Program-made: the position numbers and the translations under genes
The notes under the pieces: generated by a model
Seen by the model: the letters and a program-made list of their open reading frames with translations, nothing else
What the model was told of the DNA's origin: nothing
Databases searched by the model: none
NCBI GenBank assembly: GCA_001780985.1
Contig: MFJV01000001.1
Span: 300,049-364,048, forward strand
DNA length: 64,000 nucleotides
From: Candidatus Gottesmanbacteria bacterium RIFCSPLOWO2_01_FULL_43_11b
Lineage (GTDB): Bacteria; Patescibacteriota; Microgenomatia; UBA10105; UBA927
Direction of reading: 5' to 3'
In this document: positions 9,901 to 63,986 of the stretch, one piece after another
How positions within the stretch are numbered: position 1 is the first letter of the stretch
Layout: the number at the start of each line of letters is the position of its first letter

Positions 9901-10658
9901 GCAATTTATATGCTGACCGTGTTCAGACTTCGTTTGGAGATTTAGATGCTCGGCTGATTGGTCTCGAAGCGTCAATTTCAGCTATTGGTTACATTGCTCC
10001 ACCTGATGAGTCAACAAGTTTAGCAACCAATGTTCCTGACCTCACCGTCGCCAATAATCTAACCGTCTACGGACAGACGAGTTTAGGCCCCGTAAGTGTT
10101 GCCGGATCTCTCCTTGTTGATGGCGTCATACAGTTGTCGCAGCAGGGAATCGACTTTCTCGGTGACACGTTAGATTTTCTCAGCGGCGTTCTTCGCCTAA
10201 GTGCAAACAGAATTGAAGTCGGCGCGCCCATTGCTCCCATTCCAGGCCAAGATCTCACGATAGATCTCGAAAAACCGTCATCCGGCTTCGGCACGCTTCT
10301 CGTCAAAGGAAATGTTTACACTGAGGGCAATATCGCTGCCCGAAGTGCCACTGTCTCGGGCGAACTCACCACCCGAAAGCTCATTATAGCTAACGATCAA
10401 GCCTCACCAAGTGCGGAACTATCTGAAATTTCAAGTAACGCGACAGTCGGAGTCGGCACAATACAAGCTGAATCACTCGAAGTAACTATTCCCACTACTG
10501 CAGTAACAGATTCATCATACATCTATATCACACCGACAACTTCTACAAATAACCAAGTACTATATGTAAAGTACAAGATCGCCGGAAGCGGATTCGTTGT
10601 CGGATTTGATCAAATTGTTCCTGCTGATGTGGAGTTTAACTGGTGGGTGATTAATTAA
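960..10658 (+). CDS. Giant membrane-anchored surface protein (3232 aa) with N-terminal SAM-like segment, signal-anchor TM helix, Thr/Pro linker, collagen-like Gly-X-Y region, two LamG/ConA-like lectin domains and tail-fibre-like repeat modules
   Basis: Uninterrupted 9.7-kb ORF. TM helix [23 protein letters not shown] at ~1138-1210. [10 protein letters not shown] linker. About 200 GXY triplets. LamG motifs ([22 protein letters not shown] ... [21 protein letters not shown]; [10 protein letters not shown] ... [20 protein letters not shown] ... [15 protein letters not shown]). Repeated NVGIG(D/Q)(T/S)xP modules. Confidence 0.85.
2130..3920 (+). repeat. Collagen-like Gly-X-Y triplet repeat (about 200 triplets, mostly GPTG(A/S)TGATG) inside the giant gene, highly repetitive at DNA level
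   Basis: Continuous G-x-y periodicity from ...[14 protein letters not shown] to ...[14 protein letters not shown]. Reverse-strand Pro/Val/Ala-rich ORF 2090..3574 and +-strand ORFs 2098..2331 and 2332..3888 are frame shadows of this repeat. Confidence 0.85.
6780..8110 (+). repeat. Three tandem, diverged ~100-150-aa tail-fibre-like modules within the giant protein
   Basis: Module starts [17 protein letters not shown]..., [48 protein letters not shown]..., [47 protein letters not shown].... Each ends in ...QIANN(N/D)(D/N)TA(G/A)(F/L)T(M/V)LGN. Confidence 0.5.
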
Positions 10659-11100: not shown

Positions 11101-11580
11101 TTAATCCGCACACAATTTATATTCCCCGGGGGTAGGGGTGGGATATCCGCAGCGGGCTTGGCTCGCTCCGATATCTGCGTCTGAGGCGTTCTCAAGAACA
11201 ACTTTTGCCAGAAAATCATCTGTATCAGTCGGTTTAAGAGGATGCCGGTTATACAAATACTCGACCGGTAGATTTTTCATGTACACGGTCTCTCCGCCCG
11301 ACGGCCCTGCTTGAAAAGGACCTGTCTGGGAACAGGCTGACGTCCCCGTAGTCCCACAGCCATTGATGAGAGTGCCTGTGCCGCTCGGGTAACTATTAAA
11401 GTCATTGTAATAGAGCCGAAGAGCACTTTTGAGCTCCCGCAGTTCCGCTTTTCTCTTGGCATCTTTAGCCCGCTGTCTGGCTCCAAGAAAATTTGGAAGT
11501 GCTACACCCACGAGGGCGGCAATAATCGTTATGACAACCAGAAGTTCGATAAGTGAAAAACCTTTCTTACTATTTTTCAT
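11101..11580 (-). CDS. Type IV pilin / pseudopilin-like protein with class III (prepilin peptidase) signal peptide
   Basis: MKNSKKG|FSLIELLVVITIIAALVGVALP. G-1/F+1/E+5 motif and hydrophobic N-terminal helix. Confidence 0.75.
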   Translation of the reverse strand: MKNSKKGFSLIELLVVITIIAALVGVALPNFLGARQRAKDAKRKAELRELKSALRLYYNDFNSYPSGTGTLINGCGTTGTSACSQTGPFQAGPSGGETVYMKNLPVEYLYNRHPLKPTDTDDFLAKVVLENASDADIGASQARCGYPTPTPGEYKLCAD

Positions 11581-12122
11581 GGATCGTTTATGAGTGTTCT
11601 TCCTGTATTTGGTGTTGTATTGGTACTACTCCTTCCATAATTACACAATTTTGTCCCGCAGTACAGGTTTTGGTACGCTTGGGGCGTACTGCCGCTTTTT
11701 TGTACATCTGCATCATCGGTATTTTCCAATCGTGCATAGAGCTGGTAGGAATTATTTCCACCACCGACATCATAATAGTACGAGTGAATTGCAATTGGAT
11801 CTTCGGGAAGTTCTACCATGTAGATCGTGTTGTTTTGATCTTTAAATTCCTCTCCCCATTCGCATACTGTTGCCCCGGCTGACCCGCACGCAGTAATCTT
11901 ACCTCCGCTATTATCATTCGGGTATTTACCGGTGTCGTTAAAATAAAGCTCGAGAGCAGAAGTAACATTTTTTATATCCGTTTTCCTTCGGCTATCACGG
12001 CTTTTGGTTTGGGATGATCGGAATGTCCCAAGTCCGAGGGTAATGAGTATCGCCAAAATCAGAATGACGACGATTAACTCTATGAGTGTAAATCCGCGCG
12101 ATTTCAAAAGTTTATTATTCAT
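11577..12122 (-). CDS. Type IV pilin-like protein (start trimmed to the internal Met; the long upstream extension is judged spurious)
   Basis: MNNKLLKSRG|FTLIELIVVILILAILITLGL prepilin motif. ATGA overlap with the downstream pilin gene. The upstream 96 codons of the track ORF (11577..12410) are Ala/Arg-rich and overlap the neighbouring gene. Confidence 0.7.
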   Translation of the reverse strand: MNNKLLKSRGFTLIELIVVILILAILITLGLGTFRSSQTKSRDSRRKTDIKNVTSALELYFNDTGKYPNDNSGGKITACGSAGATVCEWGEEFKDQNNTIYMVELPEDPIAIHSYYYDVGGGNNSYQLYARLENTDDADVQKSGSTPQAYQNLYCGTKLCNYGRSSTNTTPNTGRTLINDP

Positions 12123-12156
12123 AGTTGTTAGTTGTTCGTTGTTTAGTTGTCGGTTA
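12123..12156 (+). repeat. GTTGT-type heptamer array (agttgtt agttgtt cgttgtt tagttgt cggttat) in the 34-nt gap between two pilin genes, directly upstream of start 12122 on the minus strand
   Basis: Same motif family as the arrays at 10657..10705 and 11056..11096. Confidence 0.6.
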
Positions 12157-12882
12157 TTATGGGCACCAGTTGTCTGGATTCCTGCAAGCCTCGACACAGG
12201 TAGCGACATCGTCAAAAGACGCCGGACAGCCACTCTGCTGCGGGTTAGTGTACGTATTGCAGTCACCTCCCGGCGTGCAAGCCAAACTCCCATAATACCC
12301 ACTCGCCGGCGTTGGCGTTGGGCCGCCGCCGCCATCACCACCACCGTCACCACCCGGTGTGGGCGTTGGCGTTGGGCCGCCGCCGCCATCACCACCACCG
12401 CCAGGAACAAACCCTTCTGCTACAACCGAAACACCTACCGAATTACAAAAATTGTATCCCTCCCCCCACCCACATCCCTCGACGGGGTCACAGCCAAGCG
12501 AGGTAATGGCAGGATCGCTCGTGTCTTTGAGGGAAGCGCAGGCGCGGTACCCCAAACAGGGATTTGCTTCCGGCACGTATAAATAGGGCTGTTTCGTAGA
12601 GGGGTCACAAGGAATTTTATCAAGGTATGGAACCAGTGTTGCTGCGCCGCAACTATCGAGAATTCCAGAGTCGGGGTAACACCCCTTGTCATTGTAGTAC
12701 TCTTCAAATGCAGTACGTATTGCATTAAGGTCGCTTTTTCGCTTCGCATCATAGCCCCTATCAATTTGTCGTTTCCAGTTAAAAAGGGCAACGACGGTAA
12801 ACAGAACCAGGATAATCGCAATTGCGATCAGGAGTTCTGCCATCGTCCACCCCTGCCTGCCGGCAGGCTGGCCTTCTTTCAT
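12157..12882 (-). CDS. Type IV pilin-like protein with Gly/Asp and Pro/Thr low-complexity repeats (start trimmed to Met16 of the track ORF 12157..12927)
   Basis: MKEGQPAGRQG|WTMAELLIAIAIILVLFTVVALF with E+5. Internal GGGGDGGGGPTPTPTPGGDGGGDGGGGPTPTP. Confidence 0.65.
   Translation of the reverse strand: MKEGQPAGRQGWTMAELLIAIAIILVLFTVVALFNWKRQIDRGYDAKRKSDLNAIRTAFEEYYNDKGCYPDSGILDSCGAATLVPYLDKIPCDPSTKQPYLYVPEANPCLGYRACASLKDTSDPAITSLGCDPVEGCGWGEGYNFCNSVGVSVVAEGFVPGGGGDGGGGPTPTPTPGGDGGGDGGGGPTPTPASGYYGSLACTPGGDCNTYTNPQQSGCPASFDDVATCVEACRNPDNWCP
12308..12402 (+). repeat. Direct tandem duplication (~54 nt unit, 1.75 copies) inside the pilin-like gene, encoding GGGG(D)GGGGPTPTPTP
   Basis: ggcgttggcgttgggccgccgccgccatcaccaccaccg occurs twice in tandem. 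Confidence 0.7.
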
Positions 12883-15842: not shown

Positions 15843-16052
15843 ATGCCGCTTGTTTGGGATTATCCGAAAGCTAAACTCACGAGATCCCGCCGCGGTTCCG
15901 TACTACTTCTTGAGCGATTGATTAATTTTGGACCGGGAAAAGGAGAAAAAATTCACCTGCGGAAAGTAAAAGAACACTGGGGGGCCCTCCGCTTGTTTCC
16001 GAACAAACGGCGGCTCATGGAGCTTTTCTTATGGGGAAAGCCACAATCTTAA
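15843..16052 (+). CDS. Small hypothetical protein directly upstream of and overlapping an AbiEii toxin gene; possibly a truncated or remnant AbiEi-type antitoxin
   Basis: 69 aa. Overlaps 16031 ORF by 22 nt. No confident family match from sequence alone. Confidence 0.3.
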   Translation: MPLVWDYPKAKLTRSRRGSVLLLERLINFGPGKGEKIHLRKVKEHWGALRLFPNKRRLMELFLWGKPQS

Positions 16053-16693
16053 CACCGAGACAAACTGAGCTCATACGGGCACTTTGCGCAGACACATTTT
16101 TCACCGACACGTTTTATTTTACCGGAGGAACTGCGCTTTCAGAGGTGTATCTCAAGCATCGCAAAAGCGAAGATCTGGATTTTTTTTCCGCCCGCACGTA
16201 TGATCCCCAACGAATTCTCCACGCGTTAACGCGGTGGTCCAAAACACAAAGATTTTCTATCAAAACGGACTTTGTCGAGCCTACGCATATCTACGTGCTG
16301 ACATACCCCGATGGCCACGCTGTCAAAGTGGACTTTGCTACATATCCCTACCCAAGCCTCGATACGCCAAGCCGGTATCGGGATACCTTGTCCGTGGACA
16401 GCCTGTTTGATATTGCCGTCAACAAACTCGTAACCATTACCCAACGCACGGAGGTGAAAGATTTTGTAGATCTTTATTTTCTATTCCGGCAGTTTACATT
16501 TTGGACCCTCCGGGACGGCGTTAAAACCAAATTTAATATCGAGATAGATCCATATGGAGTTGCCTCAAATTTCATGGCTGTAGAAGACTTTGATTTCCTT
16601 CCGATCATGCATACCCCATTGACCCTACAGGCGCTCAAAATGTTTTTCCGGACCAAGGCAAAAGATCTGGGGAAAAAGAGCATCGCCCCTTGA
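16031..16693 (+). CDS. abiEii: AbiEii / AbiGii-family nucleotidyltransferase toxin (type IV TA system, DUF1814)
   Basis: FYFTGGTALSEVYLKHRKSEDLDFFS matches the GGTAL...RxSxDLDF nucleotidyltransferase signature of the family. Confidence 0.75.
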   Translation: MGKATILTPRQTELIRALCADTFFTDTFYFTGGTALSEVYLKHRKSEDLDFFSARTYDPQRILHALTRWSKTQRFSIKTDFVEPTHIYVLTYPDGHAVKVDFATYPYPSLDTPSRYRDTLSVDSLFDIAVNKLVTITQRTEVKDFVDLYFLFRQFTFWTLRDGVKTKFNIEIDPYGVASNFMAVEDFDFLPIMHTPLTLQALKMFFRTKAKDLGKKSIAP

Positions 16694-16726: not shown

Positions 16727-17263
16727 ATGTACAAGATAGATATACTCCTGAAGCAAAAAAATCGTTTATTTCATACCAGGGACCTCGGCCTTTTGTGGCA
16801 GATACAAAATACAAATACACTCTACACCCAAATCAAACGCTACACAGCCAAAGGCATACTTATTCCGGTCCAAAAAGGACTGTATACCACCGTCCCCGTA
16901 ACCCAACTGCATCCGTTTGCGCTTGGCGCGGCTGCCCTGCACCGTTATTGCTATATAAGTTGTGAGTATGTGTTGGGTCAGGCAGGCATTATATTCCAGG
17001 CCGGTCAATCCGTCACGTTTGTTTCATCTGTTTCACGTAAATTCACGCTTGGTGGTCATGAGTTTTTTGTAAGACAGCTGGCAGATCAATTTCTCTTTAA
17101 TGATGCCGGTATTCAAAAAGATGACGACGGCATATCTATCGCCTCCCCCCAGCGCGCAGTTGCCGATCTTTTATACTTTAATCCTCACGCTCATTTTGAT
17201 AACCGACGCGCATTAGATTGGACAAATGTGCGCGACATACAAAAGAAAGTGGGGTATCTATGA
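16727..17263 (+). CDS. abiEi: AbiEi-family antitoxin / transcriptional regulator (type IV TA system)
   Basis: N-terminal LFHTRDLGLLWQIQNTNTLYTQIKRYTAKGILIPVQKGLYT matches the AbiEi_4 winged-helix pattern (F...DL......N....L.RL...G.L..I.RGLY). Its stop overlaps the next gene as ATGA. Confidence 0.75.
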   Translation: MYKIDILLKQKNRLFHTRDLGLLWQIQNTNTLYTQIKRYTAKGILIPVQKGLYTTVPVTQLHPFALGAAALHRYCYISCEYVLGQAGIIFQAGQSVTFVSSVSRKFTLGGHEFFVRQLADQFLFNDAGIQKDDDGISIASPQRAVADLLYFNPHAHFDNRRALDWTNVRDIQKKVGYL

Positions 17264-18009
17264 TACTTCCGTATCCCAAAGACGCGCTCCATAAAGCCAT
17301 GCTCTACCGGCTCCTCATTGGTCTGTTGGATGCCAAAGATGTGGCAAGAGAGATATTTTTCAAAGGCGGTACCTGTGCTGCTATGCTTGAGTGGCTGGAT
17401 CGGTTCTCCATCGATTTGGACTTTGATCTTTCCCGAAATGCAGACAGGCCCAAGCTGAAACGGCTCCTGAAACGTATATTTAACGCCAATGGATTTCGTG
17501 TTGCCGAAGAAGCCAAAAACGAGCTCTATTTTATTCTGAAATACCAAGCACCACCGGGTACACGAAATAACTTGAAGCTGAGCATTATTGATCTTCCGGT
17601 TCGCGCGAATGTGTACCAGCCACAGTATCTTTCGGATATCGCGCGTTTCGCTGTGTGCCAAACCGTCGAAACCATGTTTGCCAATAAACTCATCGCTGTC
17701 ACCGACCGGTTTAAGAAATATCACACCATCGCTGGAAGAGACATTTATGATATACACTATTTTTTTACCCAAGGATATGGATATAATCAGGAAGTTATTA
17801 CGGAGAGGACGGGAGTGTCGCCAGCCGTATATCTACGTGAGCTTAGCGAATTTATCCGTCAAAAAATAACGGAAAGAATTATTAGTGAGGACCTGAGTTA
17901 CCTCCTGCCGCCTACAAAATTTCAAGTGGCGCGGCGCACACTAAAATCAGAAGTCCTTATCTTTCTTCAGTCCGCAAAATCCCACGCGCCGTTGATACAA
18001 CAAGCCTAA
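17260..18009 (+). CDS. abiEii: AbiEii-family nucleotidyltransferase toxin (start at the internal Met overlapping the AbiEi stop)
   Basis: FFKGGTCAAMLEWLDRFSIDLDFD signature. ATGA overlap with 16727..17263. Confidence 0.75.
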   Translation: MILPYPKDALHKAMLYRLLIGLLDAKDVAREIFFKGGTCAAMLEWLDRFSIDLDFDLSRNADRPKLKRLLKRIFNANGFRVAEEAKNELYFILKYQAPPGTRNNLKLSIIDLPVRANVYQPQYLSDIARFAVCQTVETMFANKLIAVTDRFKKYHTIAGRDIYDIHYFFTQGYGYNQEVITERTGVSPAVYLRELSEFIRQKITERIISEDLSYLLPPTKFQVARRTLKSEVLIFLQSAKSHAPLIQQA

Positions 18010-52844: not shown

Positions 52845-55054
52845 AAGATAATAAACGAAAAGTGAGTCAAAATTTTTCGCGCGCAATCATCCGAGTCAGC
52901 GAGGGCGTGAGCACGAAAAAATTTTGGGCGAACTTTGTGGGATTCGCACTCCTTCTTTTTTCCATAGGCTTTAACCTGTGGATCTACCGCCTCGAACCCA
53001 CTGCAAAAGTAGATCCGAATGATAATCATTTTCAATTTGCATTAGTTGATCGGACGAACCAAATCTTTGATTTTGCACCTAAAAATTGTTCAAAAAAATT
53101 GTCATTTGTCATTTGTCATTTGTCATTTCTTATTGATCACTGGGTGCCCAATTGGGCTGAAGGCTATAACCTCCCCTACTACTATTCCCACATCCCTCAA
53201 ATTGCTATCGTCGCTTTCTGGCGTTCGTTACATATCGGATCTTTATTTCAGTTTTATCATTGGGTTATTTATTTTCTTCTCTCTCTATTTCCACTTTCTT
53301 TATTTCTTGCACTTCGTATCACAGGACTTTCCTGGATAACAGCCGGGGTCGGAGCATTAATAGGATCTCAAATCTCTACCGACGGCTTCTACGGCCTGGA
53401 TCCAGCTTCATTCCTCTGGCGCGGGTACGGGCTTTCAAGCCAACTCTTTGCCATGGTTTTCTTACCGCTTGCAATTGCATTTGCTCTACGAGGCAAAGTG
53501 ATTCCAACGATCCTCACACTTGCCGCTACCACCGCCGGACATCTTGGAATCGGTATTATTGCATTCATAAGTGTTGGTATTGTAGGATTCCGAAAAGTTT
53601 TGTGGATTTGGGTGGGCGCGGGACTGCTCCTTGCCTACTGGATTATTCCGGCATATCTTCACAATAATTACCATAATTTCTCTGTCTGGGATCCTATCTG
53701 GAAATTTGATTCGTATGGTGCAAAAGAGGTCATCACAAGACTCTTTAACGGCAACCTATTCGACTTCGGAAGATTCCCAATTTTGACAATACTTGTATTG
53801 GTGGGATTGTTTGTAAACCGAAATTTTGCCATTCTATTTATTTTTTGGGTGCTCATGTATTTCGGAAGAACAACGTGGGGGTCACTCATCGACCTTGTTC
53901 CCTTTTTGAAAGAATTTCACCAATCTCGCTTTATCGTCGGAATTCACCTAGCCGGATTGTTTCTTATTCCGATTGGTTTCCAATTTCTCTTTCAAAAATT
54001 AAAAAATATCTTTCTTGTTATCCCTATAATTATTTTATTTATTTTCATGATTTATCCCCAAACGACGCGCTATGCTAAACATAACGATTTTTTGATTAAC
54101 CGCGGCAATGCGGACTATCAAAAAGTGGAAGATGACGTGGATTCTTTATTCTTAAATCTTAAATCTTACCTCTCTGCCCGCCCGGGGAGGGTATTTGCAG
54201 GGAGAGGAGGATCTTGGGGACGTGATTTTCGCGTTGCTGAAACCCCCTATTACATGTTCCTTTCTACACATGGAATTTCAACAGTTTTATGGATGCCGGA
54301 AACATGGTCACCAAGCTCTGATACCGAACAGTTCTTCAGTGAAAATCAACCGAAAGATTACGTTCTATTTAATATTAGATACGTAGTAGCGCCACCCAAT
54401 CAACAACCGCAATCATTCTGGAAATTACTCAAAGAGTCACCCACCTGGAAACTCTATGAAGTTGAAACGGAAGGCTACATATCCTCCGGAGTTCGTCCGG
54501 CTATTGTCAGCAGTTCGAAAGAAAACTTTATTAATCTTGTCCACTTATGGATCCAATCAGACTATCACAAGCAAGGTCTTTACCCGCAGTTAATCTTTGA
54601 CAAAGACTATCCAAAAAATTACGGCCTGCCGAATTTCAGAATGCTCGACGAAGTTACCTATAAAGTTCCGGACGGAAGCACCCACAATCTCTTTTCCGAA
54701 GTTCCCAGTTATATGTTGTCAGTTGACAGTTATCAGTTACCAAAAATTCTTTCTCAGGAATCGGACTCTGATATGGTCTTTAAAGCCAAAGTTGAGGTCA
54801 AAGAAGACTGTAAAGAATGTATTGTCATCCTCAAGCAAACCTTCCACCCGTCCTGGCGTGCCACCATCGATGGTAAGCCTGTCGAACCCATCACCGCCTT
54901 CCCCTTCTTTACCGCGGTCAAACTGGAATCAGCGGGAACACACGAAGTCATCTTTTCCTACCAACCATCGGGGATCAAAATAGCGCTCCTTATCGTTTCC
55001 GTCATCAGTCTGGGCGCTCTCTTCGCCCTCACTTCTACTGGCCAGAACCAGTGA
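52841..55054 (+). CDS. Large polytopic membrane protein (putative GT-C-like) containing a heptamer tandem repeat
   Basis: ATGA overlap with the upstream gene (MKDNKRK start, trimmed from the track ORF 52817..55054). More than 12 TM helices and a C-terminal soluble domain. Its 3' end overlaps the convergent giant gene by 20 nt. Confidence 0.65.
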   Translation: MKDNKRKVSQNFSRAIIRVSEGVSTKKFWANFVGFALLLFSIGFNLWIYRLEPTAKVDPNDNHFQFALVDRTNQIFDFAPKNCSKKLSFVICHLSFLIDHWVPNWAEGYNLPYYYSHIPQIAIVAFWRSLHIGSLFQFYHWVIYFLLSLFPLSLFLALRITGLSWITAGVGALIGSQISTDGFYGLDPASFLWRGYGLSSQLFAMVFLPLAIAFALRGKVIPTILTLAATTAGHLGIGIIAFISVGIVGFRKVLWIWVGAGLLLAYWIIPAYLHNNYHNFSVWDPIWKFDSYGAKEVITRLFNGNLFDFGRFPILTILVLVGLFVNRNFAILFIFWVLMYFGRTTWGSLIDLVPFLKEFHQSRFIVGIHLAGLFLIPIGFQFLFQKLKNIFLVIPIIILFIFMIYPQTTRYAKHNDFLINRGNADYQKVEDDVDSLFLNLKSYLSARPGRVFAGRGGSWGRDFRVAETPYYMFLSTHGISTVLWMPETWSPSSDTEQFFSENQPKDYVLFNIRYVVAPPNQQPQSFWKLLKESPTWKLYEVETEGYISSGVRPAIVSSSKENFINLVHLWIQSDYHKQGLYPQLIFDKDYPKNYGLPNFRMLDEVTYKVPDGSTHNLFSEVPSYMLSVDSYQLPKILSQESDSDMVFKAKVEVKEDCKECIVILKQTFHPSWRATIDGKPVEPITAFPFFTAVKLESAGTHEVIFSYQPSGIKIALLIVSVISLGALFALTSTGQNQ
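53092..53126 (+). repeat. A7 homopolymer followed by (TTGTCAT)x4 heptanucleotide tandem repeat inside a coding sequence
   Basis: caaaaaaattgtcatttgtcatttgtcatttgtcatttc, encoding ...KKLSFVICHLSFL.... Confidence 0.8.
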
Positions 55055-58000
55055 GGCTTTCTATCCATTCAAGCTGCAAGAAAGTCCGAATCAGAATCGG
55101 CGGCTCGATATAGCCGATCCCCCATAATACCAATCCGATGCTCAGAACAGATAAGATCGCCGGAACAAGAAATTTGTAAAAAAAGCCGTTTACGTTTACT
55201 TCAAATATTGCTTCGAGCATTTTTTGATATCCTCGAAACCATGCATCAAGTTTCTGTTGTAACCGCAACATTCTTTCTGCTTGTCTTTTTTGATGCAATT
55301 CAATATTTGATATTCCTTCCATCCAATTACCTAATTTCACTCCAAGCTTATTAAGCATTGGTCTAATATGGGGGGCGACATAATGAGCTGCAATGAGTCC
55401 GAGAGCGGCTACCCCTTGCCCAAATAACATATCCGGGTATGGATGCCCACTATAATCATAAACGGAAGTCCCTGGCAGAAAACTCACTGTATAGGCTATA
55501 TAACCCAAGGAGTGTAATGCCTGTATTACCACAATTGTCCCTAAAGACGACCAAAAACTAACGTTATCCGGAATCTGCTTTCCTGTAATCTTCTTAAGAA
55601 CCTCGTTTGCTGCAAAAAACAACAGTCGAAGAGCAATAAACCCTACTGAAACTTCCAACATATCTCCAATATTACTCACCGCCCATGCGAGTGTTGGATT
55701 TGTAGACAACTGTTGAGCCTGGCTAAATGTCAGTCCATCTTCCCTTACAATCGCAGGATTTATTGGTAGCTGATAAGGCATATTCATTTCCACTGGATAT
55801 AACCTCATATAGCGAAAAAGCTCGAGCGTAATCATGGTGAGCCCAATCAAAAACTCAACAGCTCTTGTCGGGATCAAAATATTGTCTAGCAAAGTTGTTA
55901 TAAAATCGGACTTAATTTTATGGTTCTCGAGGATTTTGGAAACAACCGAGGATATTATCGAGACTTTTTCTTGCTCCGTAAATGGTGGTGCACGGTCCTG
56001 GTATTGGCGAGTGAATGCTTCTTCAACGATCGCAGTAACTGTTTCCCGTGCTACTCCCTCCTCCTTCCAGTTTACTTTTGCAAGCACATCAGCAAAATCC
56101 CGCTCAACGACGGCTTGAAGTTGGGTGATTTGGACTTGGAAATTCGGTTGTCGTGATTGTTTTTGGAACAAACCTTTCACCCTCTCCCACGTCCCCTGTA
56201 TGGCATCCCCGATTGCCAGCATCATTTCGGTAGTACGCGGATTGAAAGCATAGATGGATTCGGAAGAGGGTTTTGATACGGATTGCGTTTTCTTGGTTAT
56301 TACAACACCAACCGCAGGAGCACCCATCGATGTCATATGAAATTGACTCCTACTCATGTCAACTGCAAGATCTGTTCCAAGCAGGTATTTCTCATAACTT
56401 CTCGATGACAAAAATTGTGTTTTGTGAAGTTCTTGCGCTTCTGACAATATTTGTCGAAAATCACGTACCCACTGCAACTTCTTTCCTGTTTTTTTCTCTA
56501 GATATTCTTTTGCAACACCAATGGTAAAAATTCCTTTCAGCGGCTCTGCCGGTACAACTGCAATAAATTCGCCGTTTTCAGCAAGTACCTCATCAAGATT
56601 ATGGAAAAATGCCGATAATTCTGTTTCTGAAAGGTGCTCTAGCGTGTGAGATGCAAAGCCTAGGGTAATCTTTCTATCACCCAGAGTCGAAAGAAGCGGA
56701 TTCGTCGCTGACTCGGCAACATTGGCAGTGATAAAGCGAATGTCTTTTCCTTCACGATTAACGCGGGTTTGTGCTTCGGTAATAGAATTTACATTGATGT
56801 CAAACCCTATCAGACTGATATTTAAAGGCAATTTTACAGCCAGTCTGCTTGTCGGATTTGCAAGATCAAATAGGAAATCTCCTTTGTTGGTACCAAACTC
56901 CGCCACCACATCACCGGACGCAAGAGCTGAAAGTTTCCCCCTCTCCACCATCCATAACTCGCTTTTTCCCCAGGAGCCTGCTTTACTCTGGCCGGGGCGA
57001 CGAGATACTGCTACATCAGCATAATCGCTATCATAGTTAGGTGATTCAGTCGATGTCTCTAATGAAGAGGTTCCAGGGCGATAATCGGTTAAAATTTGAA
57101 GAAGCAATGGTTTAAGAGATTCGGGGTTATCGAAGTTCTTCTTGAGCTCTTCAACAAGAGGAGTGCCGAGACGAGCGAGACGATTCATTCCCCGTCGCTC
57201 GAACGGACTCAAATAGTGAGCAAGGAAATCCCAATCGCTATCTGTTGGATTTTGACTATAAAAATCACGAAGTGCAGTAACCGTTCCGCTCCAAACATCT
57301 TGTGCTAATTGTTGTTGAGCAATTGAGAGATTTACTTCATTGTCAGGATCTACTTCCAGTGAAGTGGTATTGGCTTTGAGCGTAAGATCTGTTTTTGCAA
57401 TGACAGAAATTACCGGTGCAATCGGCAAACTTTCACCGGTAAATGTGTAATGCCCTGACCCACCTGCGATAGCGGTTTTTATTGCGGCAATAATCTCATC
57501 CGTTATTTCGATGTTTCTCGGAAGTTCAATGTAGAAATCGCTCCCACTCGGTCGCCAAAAACCGATGTGTGTTTCTTTTCCGATAATATCTGCAATTGCC
57601 GGTACAGACCGATTCAAAATATATCGTAAGAAATCATTTCCGGAAGCATAACCATACTTGTCGTTAATCCATTTGAGTACTCCCGGAACTTCTATTCGTA
57701 ATAAGTTAAAATTCCCTCCTGATTGATTTTCATCTTCAAGGTGGCTAAGTAAATCGGTCCTATCATGGAAGACTTCAATATTGATGTTTTGTTGGATTCT
57801 TAATATATCGACGTCATTGGATAGTACCGGATCAAACAATATCTCTGAGAAGAACTGCAACAAACCCTGATCCCCTTGGACGCTATCAACAATGTCAACC
57901 ATTTCACGGTGATACGTTTTGAGCCTGTTTGCGAGAAGTCCGGCGGAAAGCACAGGTTGAAGTCCGACATCAACAGTATCTGGCACCTCGCGGGTTATGT

Positions 58001-61000
58001 GCACGGATGCAGGTCGATAGACAATGGCGTCCCCTTCTTTGTAAAGGCTTTTGACTTGGTTTGCGGCAGCCTGAACGCGACTAACCAACGCATCATCAAC
58101 TAAGCTTTGTGTGAGAATGCTGAATTCATCACCACCAGTTCGGACTACAATGTAGTCTTCTCCTAATTCTTTTTCAATTGCCGCAATGACGTCATAAATG
58201 AGGTAATCTCCCACAATATTCGAGGGCTGCCCGCCAACATCGTTTGCGCCGCGGATATTCGTGAAGTCAATCGTCAAGGCGTTGTAGCTATTACCAAGGA
58301 GATACCGAAGCACGAATGATCGGAAGACCGGGATAGCTGACCTGTTATTTTTATATTGGGCTTGAACTTCTTCTGTTATAGCAGGGTCTTGCGGCAAGAT
58401 GGCAGAGGGTAAAACTTTCTGGAAACCAGGATCGATTAATCGGCGCTTAATGAACGAGGTAATTTGATCTGCATTTGGGAGGACGCTGAGCTTATCAAAA
58501 TCAATAGAAAGGTTTTCCAGGACTTTTTCTGTCATAGCATCAACCGATGGTGGCGATCGACCGGTCGGCTGAGGAGTTTGCGGTGTCGCTGGAGGCAGAA
58601 GGCTCGGGAAGAATCGCCCGAGAAACTGCCGAATCGGCGCAATCCATCCTTCCCCTACTTTCTGCAATTCCAAAAGCGGCACGGAAAATTCATAGCGTCG
58701 GGTATTACTTCTTTCAATCCAGTCCTCTTTTGTCCCGACCTTTGCGTAATTCCAAAAGACATAACTATCGCTATATCCAAATTCTGCTGAATCACCACCT
58801 TCTGTTTCTATAATCCCGTCGACCCCAATTTCTCGCATAAAAGTCGTAAGCGCGAGATTCGATGGACTTCCTAACCACTGCAGATAGGAATACCCTTGAA
58901 TATACATTGTGCCAAGGAGATATCGAGGGTCAATTTCTGTAAGTTCACCTGACTCAATCCGGTTATAGATCGAATTCAACAAGCGAGTATATTCAGTTTC
59001 ATGATTGGTGTATAAAGCATGAGTCATTCCGGTTAATGATTTAATATGCTCTAAACGCTCTGGCTTGCGCCCAAACCACCAAGAAATGTACGCTTTCACA
59101 AGGGCCGGAGGAACTCTATTTCGGGCATCGAGTAGGGATGCTCGGTAAGGAATAACTGCAGTTACGAAACCTTCGCCCTCCCCTCGTGTTCTTCCGTATA
59201 ATTTTGCTTGCGTTTGATCATCTGTAGTGTATAGACCCACTCCAAGAGTCTGTCCTGCATCTGCATCGTCGTCTAATTCCTCGTCATAGTTTAAACGCAC
59301 TGAAAGCGGCTTTTTTGACCCGTGCCAAAGTACAATCTCGTCAGGCCGTGGAGAATTAATATCAACCGTCAGTGGATCTGTTTGCCCCAAAACAAGAAGG
59401 GGAACAGCTGCATCATTAATGACAATCTCGCTTACTGTGTTTGTGTTATCAAGTTTCTTTCGTATGGTAAAGGTTTTAAAATCAGGAACATTCGTAATAG
59501 GTGCAGTGGTACTCCCCGTGTCTACTCCCTTCTTGCCAAACAAAGATCTGACTCTATTTGCCGCCTCCGCCTTGATAACTCCCTCTAGCTCCCACAGCGC
59601 CTTCCACCAAAACCCAATAAACTCTCGAGTAAGCGAGCGAGATTTCGCTGGCCCCTGGAAATATTCTTCATATACGGCATCGTATGGCCTCAGCGTATCT
59701 CCCGGAAGAATACCTTGGTTTCGTAAACTCAACTCTTTTTCATAATCAGCATTGTGAGCCTGAATCAAACGTAATCTTGTCTGCCACAAATCTACTTTTC
59801 TCTGTGCAGTAGCAGTAAATGGTATAAGAGCTGGCTGAACCTTGACTGCCCCAGAGTTGCTTTGACCACTTGGGTAGTAGTACTCTATTACATTCTTTCC
59901 TATCGTACTTACAACTGGTCTGCCAGACATATACTCACTGTCACTTTGAAAAGAAGTCAAAACTACTACAACAACTATTTTGTCATTCGGCAGTTTCACT
60001 AAAGCAAAATCGTGCGCAACAAATATTTTATCGGCCGGACTGCGAATATTACCAATCATGTTTGCAACAGCATCTTGGTCAACACCTAGGTCAGTACCGC
60101 TTAGCGTCCATTCTGCATCGTCTATAGAAGACGGTGCGGACATGAAAGACCACAAAAGGTTGGTACTTTCATCTGAAAGTCCTAATCGGTCGGAGGCAAA
60201 AAGTTCCAAGAGTTCGCCGAGTGATTTTGCGGTTACTAATCTGGGAGATACGCTAATGTCTGTGATCCCCCAAGAGGAAAAATTATCCTTGAACGTATAT
60301 CCCTGATGAGATTCTACGAATTCTGTAAGAATTTGTGTGGCTTCTTCGTCGTGATTTACAACCATGGCTGATAGTAATTCACGAATATTTTTCGTACTAT
60401 TTTCTGGAATTGCCGCCATAGCTTCTTCAAAAGGCATTCTTTGATTGTCCACCCACCGCAAAACGCTCATGGCAATTGGTATTTTTACGGTAGAAGCAGC
60501 ATGCACCGGAATATCTTCATTTATTTTTATTGTTTTTGATATATTGTCGTCGAGTTCATACACATACACAGACACCAATCCATCTGTCTGAGAAACGGCA
60601 TCTTGAATAGTTGCCGTTAAAGACTGAAAAGCTTGTTGTTCTGCTATTTCTTGAGCATTTTCTACCTCGAGATTGGTTTCATAAATATCTGTTGAAACAA
60701 TATCTCGAACATATTGATAGTATGCAACTGAATCTTCAACATCTTTTTGTTCGTATGTCCATTCACCCTGTCTATATCGCCCATCCCACGTTGGCAAAGC
60801 TCCTTTACCAAGAAGCACGCTATATGTTTTGAGAAACGGTAAATCGACATCAAGTTTTGTATCGACAGGTAGGAAGGTTATACCCTGAATGCCGGCAGTC
60901 AGATGTGCTAGAAGACCGCTAAGCTCGTTGGCATAGCCTACTCGTCTTTTATCTTTCACTATCTGATCACGAACAAGCATTTCGTAGAGAATCCCCTGAT

Positions 61001-63986
61001 TCAGTTCGCCGTTCGGACCAATCCAAGGTGTATCTGTCATAAAGCTCGAACTATTTTCTAGTTCGAGCATTATGTTTTGAAAATCAGTTAATACGCTAGT
61101 AAACCCACCTTGCGCTACTCCCCGCGCCGCCTGATCAAGGCCAATTATTACAGCAACTTGCCCCATTCGTATTGTTCTTCCAAAATGGCTATTGCCCAAA
61201 AGTCCACTACCTGTTCTTAAACGAACGTACCACTGGAGCTGTTCACCATCCATCGTCTCTGTTTTTCCTTTTTCAAATGCGGTAACCCAAATTGGATTTT
61301 CCTCAGTTCCATAGTTATATTTCAGATCAGCAATCGATGTTATTTCAATTCCATTCGGATACAAACTATCAATCAAATTAATAAATCCATAAAACCCCCC
61401 TAAATTAACTGAGTCAACGGGTCTTCCCAAAAACCACTCATACCGATAGCGGACATTTGTTAGGGGCGCACGCGGATCAGTTTTATCAACTCCCGGTAAC
61501 GCATTGTTTTCATCTATATCAAGCGTATCAGGATCATCGATAGGCTCTGTCCACGTTGATTCATTTATCCATTTCCCATCGGCCATGATGACTCTCCGAG
61601 GAACAAGCATTAGTGATATTTTTCCGGTCTTAGTATTAATAAACAAAACAATATTCTGATCAGTTCGACTCTTGCTAAAGGGCAACTCATTGCCTTCTGT
61701 CCCCATAGCGCTATAGGGACTATCTGCGCTTCGTGCGTCCATACCGAGAATTAATACGGTAACTATGGGATCCTCAAGCATTTTCCTTTTTTCTTCTTCA
61801 GATGGGTTTGGTTTTCCGTCTTTTGAAACCCTTTGCCAAAAACGATCTCCTTCTTCTGCGGCTAATTCAGTTCGGTGACGCACTGCATAGGAATGTAAAG
61901 GTTTAGAAATAAATGCAATGAATGGATTTTGAGCATTACTCGTCTGGTCAAATTCTTGCACAACTGTTTCTTCATATAAAGACTGTGCAGCAGGGACATC
62001 ATAATTAATTGTTTGTACTATGGCCGTCGGCTCTTTTACTGGCATTTGTGGTGTCGGTGTAAATACAACGTTGAGCCAAATGACGGCGCTCAAGAGGCCG
62101 TAAGCAAAAGTAGGGACGCCTATTGTCAAACCGGTGGCCCATTTAATGACATTGATAAATGTCTTACGATTTACAAATTTTTCACGAATCCCATTAACAA
62201 ACGCCTGCGCCCTGTCTCTTAACGACCTGCTTTGGATTTCTTTTAACTCTATTGTTTCTTCTGGTTGCTGCGTCTCAACAATTGTTAATTCCGTTGCTGC
62301 ACGGGTAATAATGTCTTCTCGAAGAGCAGTTAATTCTGCAGTTCTGGCTTCCGCTTCAAGTCTTCTTTGGATTGCTGCCTGTTCTGCAAGACCTTCTGTT
62401 TCAAAAATTTCCTGCCTGGATAATTGACCAAAAATCTGCAATCCTTGTTCTCGCGTCATGGTGGGAAGCTCGGCAACAATCGTTGCAAAATCTATTTCAT
62501 CTGCTTCTTTGAGCATTGCAGCGACAATTTTTCGACGCTCAATTTCAGCTTTTCTATCAGGATACAAAAGACCACGAAGTTCACTTCGAAGAGATGAAGC
62601 TAAACTATTGAGCGTCATACCAAGGGGCGCAATCTGTTCGTTGGTGAACCCGTGACCCTCAAGCGATCTAAGAATAATTACATTGAGTTCTGTTGTTGAT
62701 GCGCCGCGGATGTAAGCTTGCGGATATGCATTATCTTCTGATGCGTAAAGATCAAGGAGTACTTGGCCATAGCGATTTTTCACGTCTTCACTCAAACTTG
62801 CGAGTGCTTCAGTTCTTTTTTGTAATGCTTCAATAAGTAACAATCTATTGTTAACTAAATCTTTCTGTCTCTGCGCTTCTTGAGCTAGTTCAAGAGCTTC
62901 AGCCTCCTGTTTTTGGGTAAACCAGGTGTCCAAATTCGCAGAAAACTCTTCGAGAGCGTTGTTGGTATTCTCAAGCCGATCAACGCTGCGGACTCTGGAC
63001 AGTAACGATCGCTCGGCGAGCATGGAGTTAAGCGCATTCATGAATGAGGCAGGAGTTCGGGGAATTTGCCCGCCGGACGTACGCACATCAATGCCGTTTG
63101 CAACTAAATCCGCATGTACTTTTGTGAGCGCCTCTGAAACTCCTTGCATACCAGAAATCGCTCCTATCTCCTGCAGACGATCAGTGACACCAGAAAGTAG
63201 CAAAACGATTTGATCTCGCAATCCTCCTCTCGCTTGCGCTTGCTCTGCCCTTCGAGCAAGTTCTTCAGCAGAAGGCTCTGTGGAAACAGGAGCAGCAGGT
63301 GGTTTCGGCTCGCTCGAGGGTTCTGTTGATTCTGCTAGTTTTTTCGCCGTGTTGACAACATCAATTTTCACCTGAATTTCATTAATCAAGTCCTGAATTT
63401 CTTTACCCATGCGGAATGCTTTGAAGGCCGGTAAAACGCCGGATTCCAGCGCGTCCTGAAGAGCTTCGAGGGAGGCGGGGCTCCGGAGACGATTGGCTTT
63501 TTGTTGAATTACAGGTAACACTACTTTTTGAGCAATATCTTGTGCCTGGTCAATCGTTTGAGCGGTAAATCGAATTCTCCCAAGGTTTACACCAGCATTC
63601 CTCACGCTCTCAACCAGAGTTTTAAGTTGTTCGCGCAGTTGAATACCCAGATTTTTCGGCACGGGCGGCGCAATTGGTGGTGGTAGAGCTGGGGGAATGA
63701 TATCACTGCTTTGTTTAGCCTGAACAAGTGCGTTAACTGCTTCCGTTTGCTGCTTAATCTCTTCGGTAGTTGTTAATCCGTTGAGCAGTAAAGGATTTTG
63801 ATAATGCTCTTTGAAGTACAAATTATACTCTCTCAACGCGACCCCATATTTGAAAAATTCAACCATCTTTTCTTTCCATTGTGTATTGTCCAAATCAGTA
63901 TCAGATGGAATAACCCGAAGGGAATTTGCGTGAGCATACGGTCCATTACTCCTTATGAGATTATTGATTTTATTGTTCATCGACAC
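55035..63986 (-). CDS. Giant multidomain membrane protein (2983 aa): coiled-coil N-terminal region, TM helix, LCP (LytR-CpsA-Psr) domain, beta-lactamase-like serine-hydrolase domain, GGDEF domain, degenerate GGDEF domain, class-I methyltransferase-like domain, C-terminal TM bundle
   Basis: Uninterrupted 8.95-kb ORF. TM helix at ~62040-62140. LCP motifs VTVLILGMDARS...SRTDQNIVLFINTKTGKISLMLVPRRVIM...VDSVNLGGFYGFINLIDSL (~61290-61770). HAASTVKIPIA SxxK with ADKIF (KTG-like) (~59790-60600). IDFTNIRGANDVGGQPSNIVGDYL...YIVVRTGGDEFSIL (GGDEF at ~58123-58137). WINDKYGYASGNDFL...IGFWRPSGSDFYIEL (~57525-57570). LNISLIGFDIN...LEHL (~56780-56840). Confidence 0.85.
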   Translation of the reverse strand: MSMNNKINNLIRSNGPYAHANSLRVIPSDTDLDNTQWKEKMVEFFKYGVALREYNLYFKEHYQNPLLLNGLTTTEEIKQQTEAVNALVQAKQSSDIIPPALPPPIAPPVPKNLGIQLREQLKTLVESVRNAGVNLGRIRFTAQTIDQAQDIAQKVVLPVIQQKANRLRSPASLEALQDALESGVLPAFKAFRMGKEIQDLINEIQVKIDVVNTAKKLAESTEPSSEPKPPAAPVSTEPSAEELARRAEQAQARGGLRDQIVLLLSGVTDRLQEIGAISGMQGVSEALTKVHADLVANGIDVRTSGGQIPRTPASFMNALNSMLAERSLLSRVRSVDRLENTNNALEEFSANLDTWFTQKQEAEALELAQEAQRQKDLVNNRLLLIEALQKRTEALASLSEDVKNRYGQVLLDLYASEDNAYPQAYIRGASTTELNVIILRSLEGHGFTNEQIAPLGMTLNSLASSLRSELRGLLYPDRKAEIERRKIVAAMLKEADEIDFATIVAELPTMTREQGLQIFGQLSRQEIFETEGLAEQAAIQRRLEAEARTAELTALREDIITRAATELTIVETQQPEETIELKEIQSRSLRDRAQAFVNGIREKFVNRKTFINVIKWATGLTIGVPTFAYGLLSAVIWLNVVFTPTPQMPVKEPTAIVQTINYDVPAAQSLYEETVVQEFDQTSNAQNPFIAFISKPLHSYAVRHRTELAAEEGDRFWQRVSKDGKPNPSEEEKRKMLEDPIVTVLILGMDARSADSPYSAMGTEGNELPFSKSRTDQNIVLFINTKTGKISLMLVPRRVIMADGKWINESTWTEPIDDPDTLDIDENNALPGVDKTDPRAPLTNVRYRYEWFLGRPVDSVNLGGFYGFINLIDSLYPNGIEITSIADLKYNYGTEENPIWVTAFEKGKTETMDGEQLQWYVRLRTGSGLLGNSHFGRTIRMGQVAVIIGLDQAARGVAQGGFTSVLTDFQNIMLELENSSSFMTDTPWIGPNGELNQGILYEMLVRDQIVKDKRRVGYANELSGLLAHLTAGIQGITFLPVDTKLDVDLPFLKTYSVLLGKGALPTWDGRYRQGEWTYEQKDVEDSVAYYQYVRDIVSTDIYETNLEVENAQEIAEQQAFQSLTATIQDAVSQTDGLVSVYVYELDDNISKTIKINEDIPVHAASTVKIPIAMSVLRWVDNQRMPFEEAMAAIPENSTKNIRELLSAMVVNHDEEATQILTEFVESHQGYTFKDNFSSWGITDISVSPRLVTAKSLGELLELFASDRLGLSDESTNLLWSFMSAPSSIDDAEWTLSGTDLGVDQDAVANMIGNIRSPADKIFVAHDFALVKLPNDKIVVVVVLTSFQSDSEYMSGRPVVSTIGKNVIEYYYPSGQSNSGAVKVQPALIPFTATAQRKVDLWQTRLRLIQAHNADYEKELSLRNQGILPGDTLRPYDAVYEEYFQGPAKSRSLTREFIGFWWKALWELEGVIKAEAANRVRSLFGKKGVDTGSTTAPITNVPDFKTFTIRKKLDNTNTVSEIVINDAAVPLLVLGQTDPLTVDINSPRPDEIVLWHGSKKPLSVRLNYDEELDDDADAGQTLGVGLYTTDDQTQAKLYGRTRGEGEGFVTAVIPYRASLLDARNRVPPALVKAYISWWFGRKPERLEHIKSLTGMTHALYTNHETEYTRLLNSIYNRIESGELTEIDPRYLLGTMYIQGYSYLQWLGSPSNLALTTFMREIGVDGIIETEGGDSAEFGYSDSYVFWNYAKVGTKEDWIERSNTRRYEFSVPLLELQKVGEGWIAPIRQFLGRFFPSLLPPATPQTPQPTGRSPPSVDAMTEKVLENLSIDFDKLSVLPNADQITSFIKRRLIDPGFQKVLPSAILPQDPAITEEVQAQYKNNRSAIPVFRSFVLRYLLGNSYNALTIDFTNIRGANDVGGQPSNIVGDYLIYDVIAAIEKELGEDYIVVRTGGDEFSILTQSLVDDALVSRVQAAANQVKSLYKEGDAIVYRPASVHITREVPDTVDVGLQPVLSAGLLANRLKTYHREMVDIVDSVQGDQGLLQFFSEILFDPVLSNDVDILRIQQNINIEVFHDRTDLLSHLEDENQSGGNFNLLRIEVPGVLKWINDKYGYASGNDFLRYILNRSVPAIADIIGKETHIGFWRPSGSDFYIELPRNIEITDEIIAAIKTAIAGGSGHYTFTGESLPIAPVISVIAKTDLTLKANTTSLEVDPDNEVNLSIAQQQLAQDVWSGTVTALRDFYSQNPTDSDWDFLAHYLSPFERRGMNRLARLGTPLVEELKKNFDNPESLKPLLLQILTDYRPGTSSLETSTESPNYDSDYADVAVSRRPGQSKAGSWGKSELWMVERGKLSALASGDVVAEFGTNKGDFLFDLANPTSRLAVKLPLNISLIGFDINVNSITEAQTRVNREGKDIRFITANVAESATNPLLSTLGDRKITLGFASHTLEHLSETELSAFFHNLDEVLAENGEFIAVVPAEPLKGIFTIGVAKEYLEKKTGKKLQWVRDFRQILSEAQELHKTQFLSSRSYEKYLLGTDLAVDMSRSQFHMTSMGAPAVGVVITKKTQSVSKPSSESIYAFNPRTTEMMLAIGDAIQGTWERVKGLFQKQSRQPNFQVQITQLQAVVERDFADVLAKVNWKEEGVARETVTAIVEEAFTRQYQDRAPPFTEQEKVSIISSVVSKILENHKIKSDFITTLLDNILIPTRAVEFLIGLTMITLELFRYMRLYPVEMNMPYQLPINPAIVREDGLTFSQAQQLSTNPTLAWAVSNIGDMLEVSVGFIALRLLFFAANEVLKKITGKQIPDNVSFWSSLGTIVVIQALHSLGYIAYTVSFLPGTSVYDYSGHPYPDMLFGQGVAALGLIAAHYVAPHIRPMLNKLGVKLGNWMEGISNIELHQKRQAERMLRLQQKLDAWFRGYQKMLEAIFEVNVNGFFYKFLVPAILSVLSIGLVLWGIGYIEPPILIRTFLQLEWIESLTGSGQ

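Follow-up and report, generated by a model that had tools for sequence, protein, structure and literature searches.

A giant membrane protein of a Gottesmanbacteria genome with a divergent LCP-family domain and an atypical PBP-like domain

The 64,000-nucleotide stretch of DNA analysed here, referred to as the window, comes from Candidatus Gottesmanbacteria bacterium RIFCSPLOWO2_01_FULL_43_11b (assembly GCA_001780985.1, contig MFJV01000001.1, positions 300,049 to 364,048 of the forward strand). On its reverse strand (55035-63986) it has an open reading frame (ORF) for a giant protein of 2,983 amino acids (aa). Judged from its sequence, there is no doubt that this protein carries a true but very divergent domain of the LCP (LytR-CpsA-Psr) family, and this is followed by a domain with the fold of class-A beta-lactamases and of PBP-A, termed here the PBP-like domain. 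LCP enzymes perform the last extracellular step in fixing teichoic acids, capsules and arabinogalactan to the walls of Gram-positive bacteria and are drug targets. The segment with the two domains may be read as the enzymatic head of the giant protein, facing the envelope. It is given about an even chance of being a membrane-anchored, outward-facing LCP-type phosphotransferase with a remodelled acceptor site, coupled to a PBP-like domain that would recognise the stem peptides of peptidoglycan and position the enzyme, and would not be a beta-lactamase.

The LCP-family domain

The LCP module spans aa 743-1107 (60666-61760, on the reverse strand like all parts of the giant protein), slightly wider than the range of 61290-61770 in which a preliminary description of the window, made from the sequence alone, had placed LCP motifs. 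It consists of a firmly alignable core (aa 743-950, 61137-61760) and of a subfamily-specific C-terminal continuation (aa 951-1107, 60666-61136; FMTDTPW at aa 982-988). The latter is conserved with the database relatives P0001 and P0077 and is weakly alignable to the C-termini of canonical LCP proteins. The motifs VLILGMDARS, RTDQNIVLFINTKTGKISLMLVPRRV and VNLGGFYGFINLIDSL are located at aa 744-879. With a cutoff of 24.6 bits, the Pfam family LytR_cpsA_psr (PF03816) is matched by the whole protein at 25.6 bits and by the excised region at 30.8 bits; all three long members of the subfamily match it (best E-value 5.9e-13). A profile (A1) built from the LCP-region relatives found with phmmer has matches in the PDB to TagT (E-value 2.9e-10) and S. 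aureus LcpA/MsrR (E-value 2.5e-8), and also to the structures of TagV, TagU, Lin1025 and Lmo1026, the E-values of all these matches ranging from 3e-10 to 1e-4. Alignment of A1 with hhalign to 12 annotated canonical LCP proteins, which were taken from plasmids and served also for a joint alignment (A3), gave a probability of 99.3% and an E-value of 1.1e-19. The AlphaFold2 (AF2) model of the region, made with a five-sequence alignment, has a pLDDT of 41, too low to resolve the alpha-beta-alpha fold and hydrophobic polyprenyl tunnel of the family; its predicted strands do coincide with the canonical beta1-beta3 motifs. The assignment to the LCP family in the preliminary description was thus borne out, since the LytR_cpsA_psr search that it proposed gave a match above cutoff and the catalytic arginines are present.

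The Mg2+ ligand Asp and the pyrophosphate-binding Arg cluster of LCP enzymes have been assigned (PMC7831098). The residue roles used here are taken from that review, with numbering cross-checked on the TagT and LcpA chains and positions read from alignment A3. Conserved in the window protein are D750 in the motif LGMD (Cps2A D234), R774 and D776 in RTD (Cps2A R244 and D246), R797 in VPR (Cps2A R267, TagT R118), R922 and R924 in YVRLR (TagT R217 and R219), and R937 and R940 in GRTIR (Cps2A R374). The equivalent of Cps2A R362 is likewise present, together with that of TagT R219, in R922/R924. The Mg2+-binding pair D750/D776 is kept in all subfamily members and in 12/12 canonical LCP proteins, while the pyrophosphate cluster is represented by R797, R922/R924 and R937, with R774 and R940 in addition. 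The conserved catalytic Arg and Asp residues for which the preliminary description proposed to look are present (D750, R774, D776, R797, R924, R937 and R940). With these donor-side residues kept, the Arg cluster would grip the pyrophosphate of a polyprenyl-pyrophosphate-linked glycan, and the module would most likely still cleave this pyrophosphate and move glycan-phosphate onto an acceptor.

At three positions the window protein departs from a residue that all 12 canonical LCP proteins have in common. R798 takes the place of the Asp in PRD (S. aureus LcpA D123), H934 that of the Asp in GDFGR (LcpA D224, Cps2A D371) and M941 that of the Gln in RQ (Cps2A Q378). Positions 798 and 934 are non-Asp in all three known subfamily members, being K and T in P0001 and M and G in P0018. 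LcpA D123 and D224 are associated with peptidoglycan binding, an acceptor-site assignment for which a single review, summing up structural modelling, is the source (PMC7831098). By the same review the three substituted positions are accessory ones, either Arg-stabilising or peptidoglycan-binding, and lie outside the core catalytic set. As the equivalents of D123 and D224 are replaced in every subfamily member, the acceptor site appears to have been remodelled, and the acceptor may differ from MurNAc-C6-OH or canonical peptidoglycan.

The window protein resembles B. subtilis TagT/TagU/TagV, S. aureus LcpA (MsrR) and S. pneumoniae Cps2A in having a predicted transmembrane (TM) anchor ahead of an LCP domain that would lie outside the cytoplasm, and it matches the canonical motifs LGxD, RxD, PR, YxRxR and GRxxR(Q), except for the Gln. 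Its LCP domain is ~16-22% identical to canonical LCP proteins and, unlike these, is embedded in a protein of 2,983 aa behind ~620 cytoplasmic residues. It also differs from them by an insertion of ~50 aa after the PR motif and by a subfamily-specific C-terminal part of ~160 aa.

The PBP-like domain

The PBP-like domain was identified with Pfam, AF2 and Foldseek at aa 1108-1380 (59847-60665), with limits that are slightly different from and wider than the 59790-60600 estimated in the preliminary description. Pfam Beta-lactamase2 covers aa 1139-1344 over the full length of the model (1-214/214; 51 bits, E-value 1.5e-13), and AF2 modelling of aa 1108-1385 with 44 homologues gave a pLDDT of 92.8 and a pTM of 0.90. 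The best Foldseek matches of this model are TLA-1, PER-2, LRA-5 and PBP-A (E-value ~1e-13, TM-score ~0.7), and the best PDB matches of a profile of the family are LRA-5 and PBP-A (E-value ~2e-36).

The states of the active-site motifs were read from an alignment of 74 sequences, comprising the window domain, 72 homologues and TEM-1. The consensus of the 72 homologues is S-x-x-K, S-[ED]-E, a short omega loop without Glu166, and [HN]-K-[TG]-G. In the window domain the first motif is intact, with HAASTVK at aa 1162-1168 and S1165-T-V-K1168 aligned to TEM-1 S70/K73; among the homologues its Ser is invariant and its Lys nearly so. This agrees with the earlier description of a class-A beta-lactamase-like domain with an SxxK motif. 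The SDN region, correctly described there as atypical, reads H1212-D1213-E1214, so that Ser130 is replaced by His; Glu in place of Asn132 is a family-wide trait. The entire family, including the window domain, lacks the omega-loop segment that aligns to TEM-1 RLDRWEPELNEAIPND and with it Glu166 (and Asn170); in the window domain the loop is ~14 residues shorter than in TEM-1. The KTG position is occupied by N1309-M1310-I1311-G1312, where Lys234 is replaced by Met and the Gly alone is kept, and strand E200-209 of the model spans M1310-I1311-G1312. The sequence ADKIF (aa 1318-1322), which had been taken for a KTG-like motif, was rejected in this role as it aligns to the loop after strand beta3.

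In a neighbour-joining (NJ) tree the window domain groups with seven homologues sharing His130, six of which have Met, Ile or Leu at position 234, while two homologues of this His130 subclade are without Lys73 (S-x-x-N). The combination of His130 with a residue other than Lys at 234 thus looks like a maintained variant and not like random or one-off decay. The term "degenerate" applied to the domain in the preliminary description oversimplifies, since the variant is common to a small subclade which mostly keeps SxxK.

Compared with active class A beta-lactamases, the domain has the fold and Ser70-x-x-Lys73 and is without Ser130-Asp-Asn, Glu166 and Lys234-Thr/Ser-Gly. On this sequence evidence it cannot be a beta-lactamase. 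Like the DD-peptidases of the PBP-A type it has the class-A fold and an intact SxxK and is devoid of Glu166, but it departs from them in its second motif, where another residue stands for Ser, and in its third, where another stands for Lys. By its motifs it is thus similar to PBP-A without being typical of the group. PBP-A (Tll2115 of Thermosynechococcus elongatus) is a class-A-like DD-peptidase without the catalytic Glu (PMC11189452), and LRA-5 is a metagenomic "beta-lactamase precursor" whose wild type confers no beta-lactam resistance (PMC12777564). Both have the class-A fold and SxxK and lack the omega-loop Glu166, as does the window domain; they keep Ser130 and Lys234, the counterparts of His1212 and Met1310 in the window domain.

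The closest homologues of the domain (P0002, P0003, P0005 and P0008) are 29-34% identical to it and contain it as one module of larger proteins, where it is paired with the peptidoglycan-associated VanW or LysM. These have S-E-E and K-[TG]-G and no LCP domain, whereas the window protein has no VanW or LysM. One of them, P0002 (4,445 aa), combines Beta-lactamase2, VanW and SecA_DEAD/P-loop_SecA in one giant protein.

Relatives and organisation of the giant protein

The giant ORF has a GTG start with an ATG two codons downstream and GAGGAG just upstream, and all peptide strings quoted in the preliminary description are found in it. That it might be an artefact was considered and rejected: it runs for 8.9 kb without stops, a homologous stop-free ORF of >21.5 kb is known from another assembly and the domain order is conserved. 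Look-up with the GTG or the ATG start found no exact sequence record for the 2,983-aa protein, a PADLOC scan gave no meaningful match, and a phmmer comparison of the whole protein to the PDB gave weak GGDEF and PBP-A matches and nothing else.

The N-terminal region (aa 1-619, 62130-63986) is predicted to be cytoplasmic and has a helix-favouring composition; the term "coiled-coil-rich" given to it earlier was checked by composition, A+E+L+K+Q+R accounting for 51% of its residues and for 40% of those of the whole protein. Next comes a predicted TM signal-anchor (aa 620-642, 62061-62129), an uncharged hydrophobic span which includes the sequence GLLSxVIWLNV common to P0001 and its locus L002 and which falls inside the single TM helix that had been placed at 62041-62141. 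TM spans were predicted solely by a 19-residue Kyte-Doolittle hydropathy scan, in which the next comparable span occurs at aa 2703, within a group of 3-5 hydrophobic spans near the C-terminus (aa 2703-2957, 55116-55880). The N-side flank of the anchor has R, K, R, K and K with one E, and the C-side flank is neutral, which by the positive-inside rule indicates a type-II (N-in/C-out) anchor. With these flank charges and the LCP profile matches, the order of a type-II anchor and then an LCP-family domain proposed in the preliminary description holds. Between the two lies a region of stalk and conserved pre-LCP helices (aa 643-742, 61761-62060) with a Pro/Thr-rich linker and EGDxFW at aa 712-717. 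The 80-aa database protein P0051 is identical to the window protein over 28 residues after the TM helix (aa 648-675) and then diverges completely, as might result from strain variation, a frameshift or a broken assembly in another sample.

Relatives of the LCP part are few. When 1.84 billion representative proteins were scanned exhaustively by phmmer with a single-sequence query, only four were found, namely P0001 (41% identity), P0018 (a giant of 7,512 aa, 28% identity) and the fragments P0062 and P0077. In a word-indexed homologue search a 785-aa query matched P0001 alone, and searches of this kind with the A1 profile and with the isolated PBP-like domain gave no matches. P0001 is a truncated gene call. 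The gene itself is located on a 94.6-kb contig of a Patescibacteria metagenome-assembled genome (MAG; H41-bin250) from Hainich groundwater (L002/L003) and also on a 190-kb metagenome contig of the same groundwater organism. At L002/L003 one frame is stop-free across all 21,533 nt examined (>7,177 aa). LytR_cpsA_psr is the sole Pfam family reported in this ORF, below cutoff as the splitting of the query cut the domain, and the ORF at L002 also has a region homologous to the GGDEF-like part of the window protein described below. A strong TM helix lies ~50-110 aa ahead of the LCP module in the L002 protein (L002p; immediately before the module) and in P0018 (~60 aa), and on this basis "TM + LCP" is, at sequence level, a conserved cassette inside giant proteins. 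Two genes of the Sulfatase/Phosphodiest families come after P0018 at its locus (L020).

The PBP-like domain is not part of this cassette in P0001. The alignment to P0001 has 40% identity over aa 614-1107 and resumes at aa 1379-1472, with exactly aa 1108-1378 absent, which makes the PBP-like domain a clean in-frame insertion in the one protein or deletion in the other. The conserved segment that follows it (aa 1381-1472, 59571-59846; KVQP..., FIGFWWKALW) is 42% identical to its counterpart in P0001/L002, where it directly abuts the LCP module. None of the 72 homologues of the PBP-like domain has an LCP domain (0/72), and no protein among the 1.84 billion representatives matched both halves of the query, so that the pairing of LCP and PBP-like domains appears to be unique to this protein within the databases searched. 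A further sign of modularity is found at aa 8-93 (63708-63965), which are 46% identical to the internal aa 3423-3508 of P0018. Such likeness to an otherwise unrelated giant points to the shuffling of modules among giant proteins. An origin of the region from a phage or a polyvalent protein is unsupported, with no match to aa 688-1385 found by tblastn in a phage collection and no related locus found in viral contigs.

Downstream of the PBP-like domain there is a GGDEF-like domain (aa 1902-1999, 57990-58283; Pfam 34 bits) with intact DxFxxxND (aa 1908-1916) and GGDEF (aa 1951-1955) motifs, and a second, degenerate GGDEF-like motif, SGSDF, is present at aa 2147. A segment resembling S-adenosylmethionine (SAM)-dependent methyltransferases follows at aa 2357-2480 (56547-56918), below the Pfam cutoff. 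The sequence LWHGS (aa 1553-1557, 59316-59330) followed by GVGLYTTDD recalls the H-Y-E signature of PARP-type ADP-ribosyltransferases (ART); no match supporting such a reading was found in Pfam, NCBIfam, PADLOC or PDB sequences. No hydrophobic span separates the LCP and PBP-like domains from the GGDEF, SGSDF and methyltransferase-like modules, and these three modules are consequently predicted to lie outside, where GTP and SAM are absent. It is possible that the simple hydropathy scan missed a membrane passage, or that the protein is not a conventional resident of the envelope.

Ultrasmall predatory bacteria have giant proteins for which "unlikely localisations" have been described (bioRxiv 10.1101/2023.11.21.568195). 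Like the window protein, the Omnitrophota "Archaeovorins" of that study are encoded by long ORFs and have few divergent domains, TM segments and cytoplasm-type enzymes predicted outside. The SecA_DEAD of P0002 resembles that of the Archaeovorin giants, whereas the window protein lacks SecA and falls far short of their length. The text of the Archaeovorin paper contains neither "LytR" nor "beta-lactamase", and the nearest relative of the window protein is from Patescibacteria and not from Omnitrophota.

A glycan-biosynthesis island spans 17957-55054 of the window. Its sugar genes code for a DegT aminotransferase, a GFO/IDH/MocA oxidoreductase, an epimerase/dehydratase, RmlD and two hexapeptide acyltransferases, and its transferases comprise five GT2, one GT4 and three PMT_2 (GT-C) enzymes along with a YfhO-like protein. 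PMT_2 is a Pfam family named for protein mannosyltransferases. There are also an NPCBM-domain protein, several methyltransferases and a number of ORFs without a Pfam match, among them ~10 large ones and many with multiple TM spans. No initiating phosphoglycosyl transferase, flippase (Wzx) or polymerase (Wzy) was recognised in the island (~17.9-55 kb). The functional tie between the giant protein and this island suggested in the preliminary description is sound as regards the island itself, which is real (GT2, GT4, PMT_2/GT-C, RmlD, DegT), while the link between the two is one of proximity only. On the forward strand, the island is bordered by two genes for nucleotidyltransferase toxins of AbiEii (16031-16693 and 17218-18009), a family that belongs to type IV toxin-antitoxin and abortive infection systems. 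A second giant ORF of 3,232 aa (960-10658, forward strand) has collagen triple-helix repeats (Pfam E-value 2e-65) and Laminin_G_3 domains, and a GC spike of 0.64 at 2001-4000 within it may reflect the collagen repeats. Just downstream of it are two pilin-like genes with an N-terminal methylation motif and a T2SSG fold (11101-12410, reverse strand).

Proposed function and its alternatives

In the proposed mechanism the signal-anchor at aa 620-642 would place the downstream chain outside the cytoplasmic membrane, as suggested by the positive-inside rule and by the order of TM helix and then LCP domain in all three homologous giants. The LCP module would act there on its lipid-linked donor. The PBP-like domain would be a later modular insertion that has kept its Ser-x-x-Lys nucleophile pair; it would most likely recognise a stem peptide of the acyl-D-Ala-D-Ala type, or acylate slowly in a single turnover, and so hold the ligase at the wall. 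A non-catalytic D-Ala-D-Ala-binding role, as suggested in the preliminary description, is plausible. Several observations weigh against this proposal. The substitution of two invariant Asp residues and of the stabilising Gln could mean that LCP activity is altered or lost. The island lacks a recognisable supplier of the polyprenyl-pyrophosphate-linked donor that an LCP enzyme needs. A catalytic PBP-like domain, too, could account for the strict retention of SxxK and for the conserved His130. The placement of the GGDEF and methyltransferase-like domains outside also counts against it, and the topology model may be incomplete.

If the PBP-like domain were catalytic, it would be an active DD- or LD-peptidase or an esterase in which Ser1165/Lys1168 work with His1212 as a proton shuttle in place of Ser130/Lys234, trimming stem peptides or stripping ester substituents beside the site at which the LCP module attaches its polymer. 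The invariance or near-invariance of the SxxK residues across 72 homologues would fit such an enzyme, as would the confidently predicted fold and the presence of a DD-peptidase, PBP-A (PMC11189452), among the nearest solved relatives. The co-occurrence of His130 with Met/Ile/Leu234 in one NJ cluster of 8 sequences also looks coordinated and maintained. But in the penicillin-recognising enzymes that were compared, Lys (or His or Arg) at position 234 forms part of KTG, the motif that binds the carboxylate. To our knowledge, a hydrophobic residue there has no described active precedent. The loss of Lys73 in two members of the subclade, moreover, suggests relaxed catalytic constraint, and a rewired enzyme is considered unlikely. 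For the LCP module, a further suggestion would be a decayed, non-catalytic remnant serving as a structural or lipid-binding spacer. Its substitutions at three canonically invariant positions (D to R, D to H and Q to M), a Pfam score barely above cutoff and long insertions (aa 799-850 and 951-1107) could be so explained; yet seven catalytic Asp and Arg residues are kept across homologues of 28-41% identity, the pattern expected under catalytic selection, and the chance of a mere remnant is put as extremely small.

A different acceptor is envisaged if the LCP module glycosylates protein, either the giant itself or the neighbouring collagen/LamG giant. LcpA of Actinomyces oris transfers glycan to the surface protein GspA (PMC6381275), and so LCP-mediated protein glycosylation has a precedent. 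With its LCP fold and Arg cluster working on a non-peptidoglycan acceptor, A. oris LcpA may be a functional analogue of the window module; it has a protein acceptor, sortase coupling and a stabilising disulfide, none of which is in evidence in the window protein. Donor-side residues that are kept while the peptidoglycan-linked Asp pair is replaced in three subfamily members (PMC7831098) would agree with a protein acceptor, as would an island rich in PMT_2/GT-C-type glycosyltransferases and a second giant surface-type protein with collagen repeats in the window. The case is nevertheless purely inferential, with no acceptor motif identified, and it depends on a role of the Asp pair that one review summarised from structural modelling. 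The adjoining PBP-like domain and its VanW- and LysM-associated relatives point instead to peptidoglycan, so that protein glycosylation seems rather unlikely. The puzzle of topology would be met by a host- or prey-directed surface protein or delivered multi-effector of an episymbiotic ultrasmall bacterium, whose LCP and PBP-like domains act on the wall of a partner and whose GGDEF, methyltransferase and possible ART-like segments act after translocation. Consistent with this, no TM span parts the wall-type from the nucleotide-dependent domains, GGDEF and DxFxxxND are intact, modules are shuffled between giants and the closest relatives are themselves giants (the >7,177-aa Patescibacteria ORF, the 7,512-aa P0018, and P0002 with SecA_DEAD). 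Giants with implausible localisation are also known from predatory ultrasmall bacteria (bioRxiv 10.1101/2023.11.21.568195). Against it, no secretion, pore-forming or autoprocessing domain was detected in library scans of the giant protein, there is no link to phages or mobile elements, an LCP enzyme depends on a lipid-linked donor that sits in the membrane of the producer itself, and a missed TM helix is a simpler explanation; such an effector is thought very doubtful. A broader combination, in which an undescribed LCP subfamily confined to the giants of ultrasmall bacteria keeps lipid-pyrophosphate chemistry, has a rebuilt acceptor site and is joined with the His/Met PBP-like domain in a multi-enzyme machine (GGDEF, methyltransferase and possibly ART-like) acting on or in partner cells and not solely on the wall of the producer, is judged quite improbable as a whole.

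The LCP domain of the window protein represents a deeply divergent lineage of the family, seen only as a TM + LCP cassette in giant proteins. If active, it would widen the range of acceptor chemistry of LCP enzymes, and it would make the otherwise opaque giants of ultrasmall and probably episymbiotic bacteria accessible to enzymatic tests. The Ser-Lys-His variant of the class-A fold without Lys234 bears on the repurposing of penicillin-recognising folds, and the prediction that wall-acting domains share one side of the membrane with nucleotide-dependent ones poses an experimental question on the topology or delivery of such proteins.

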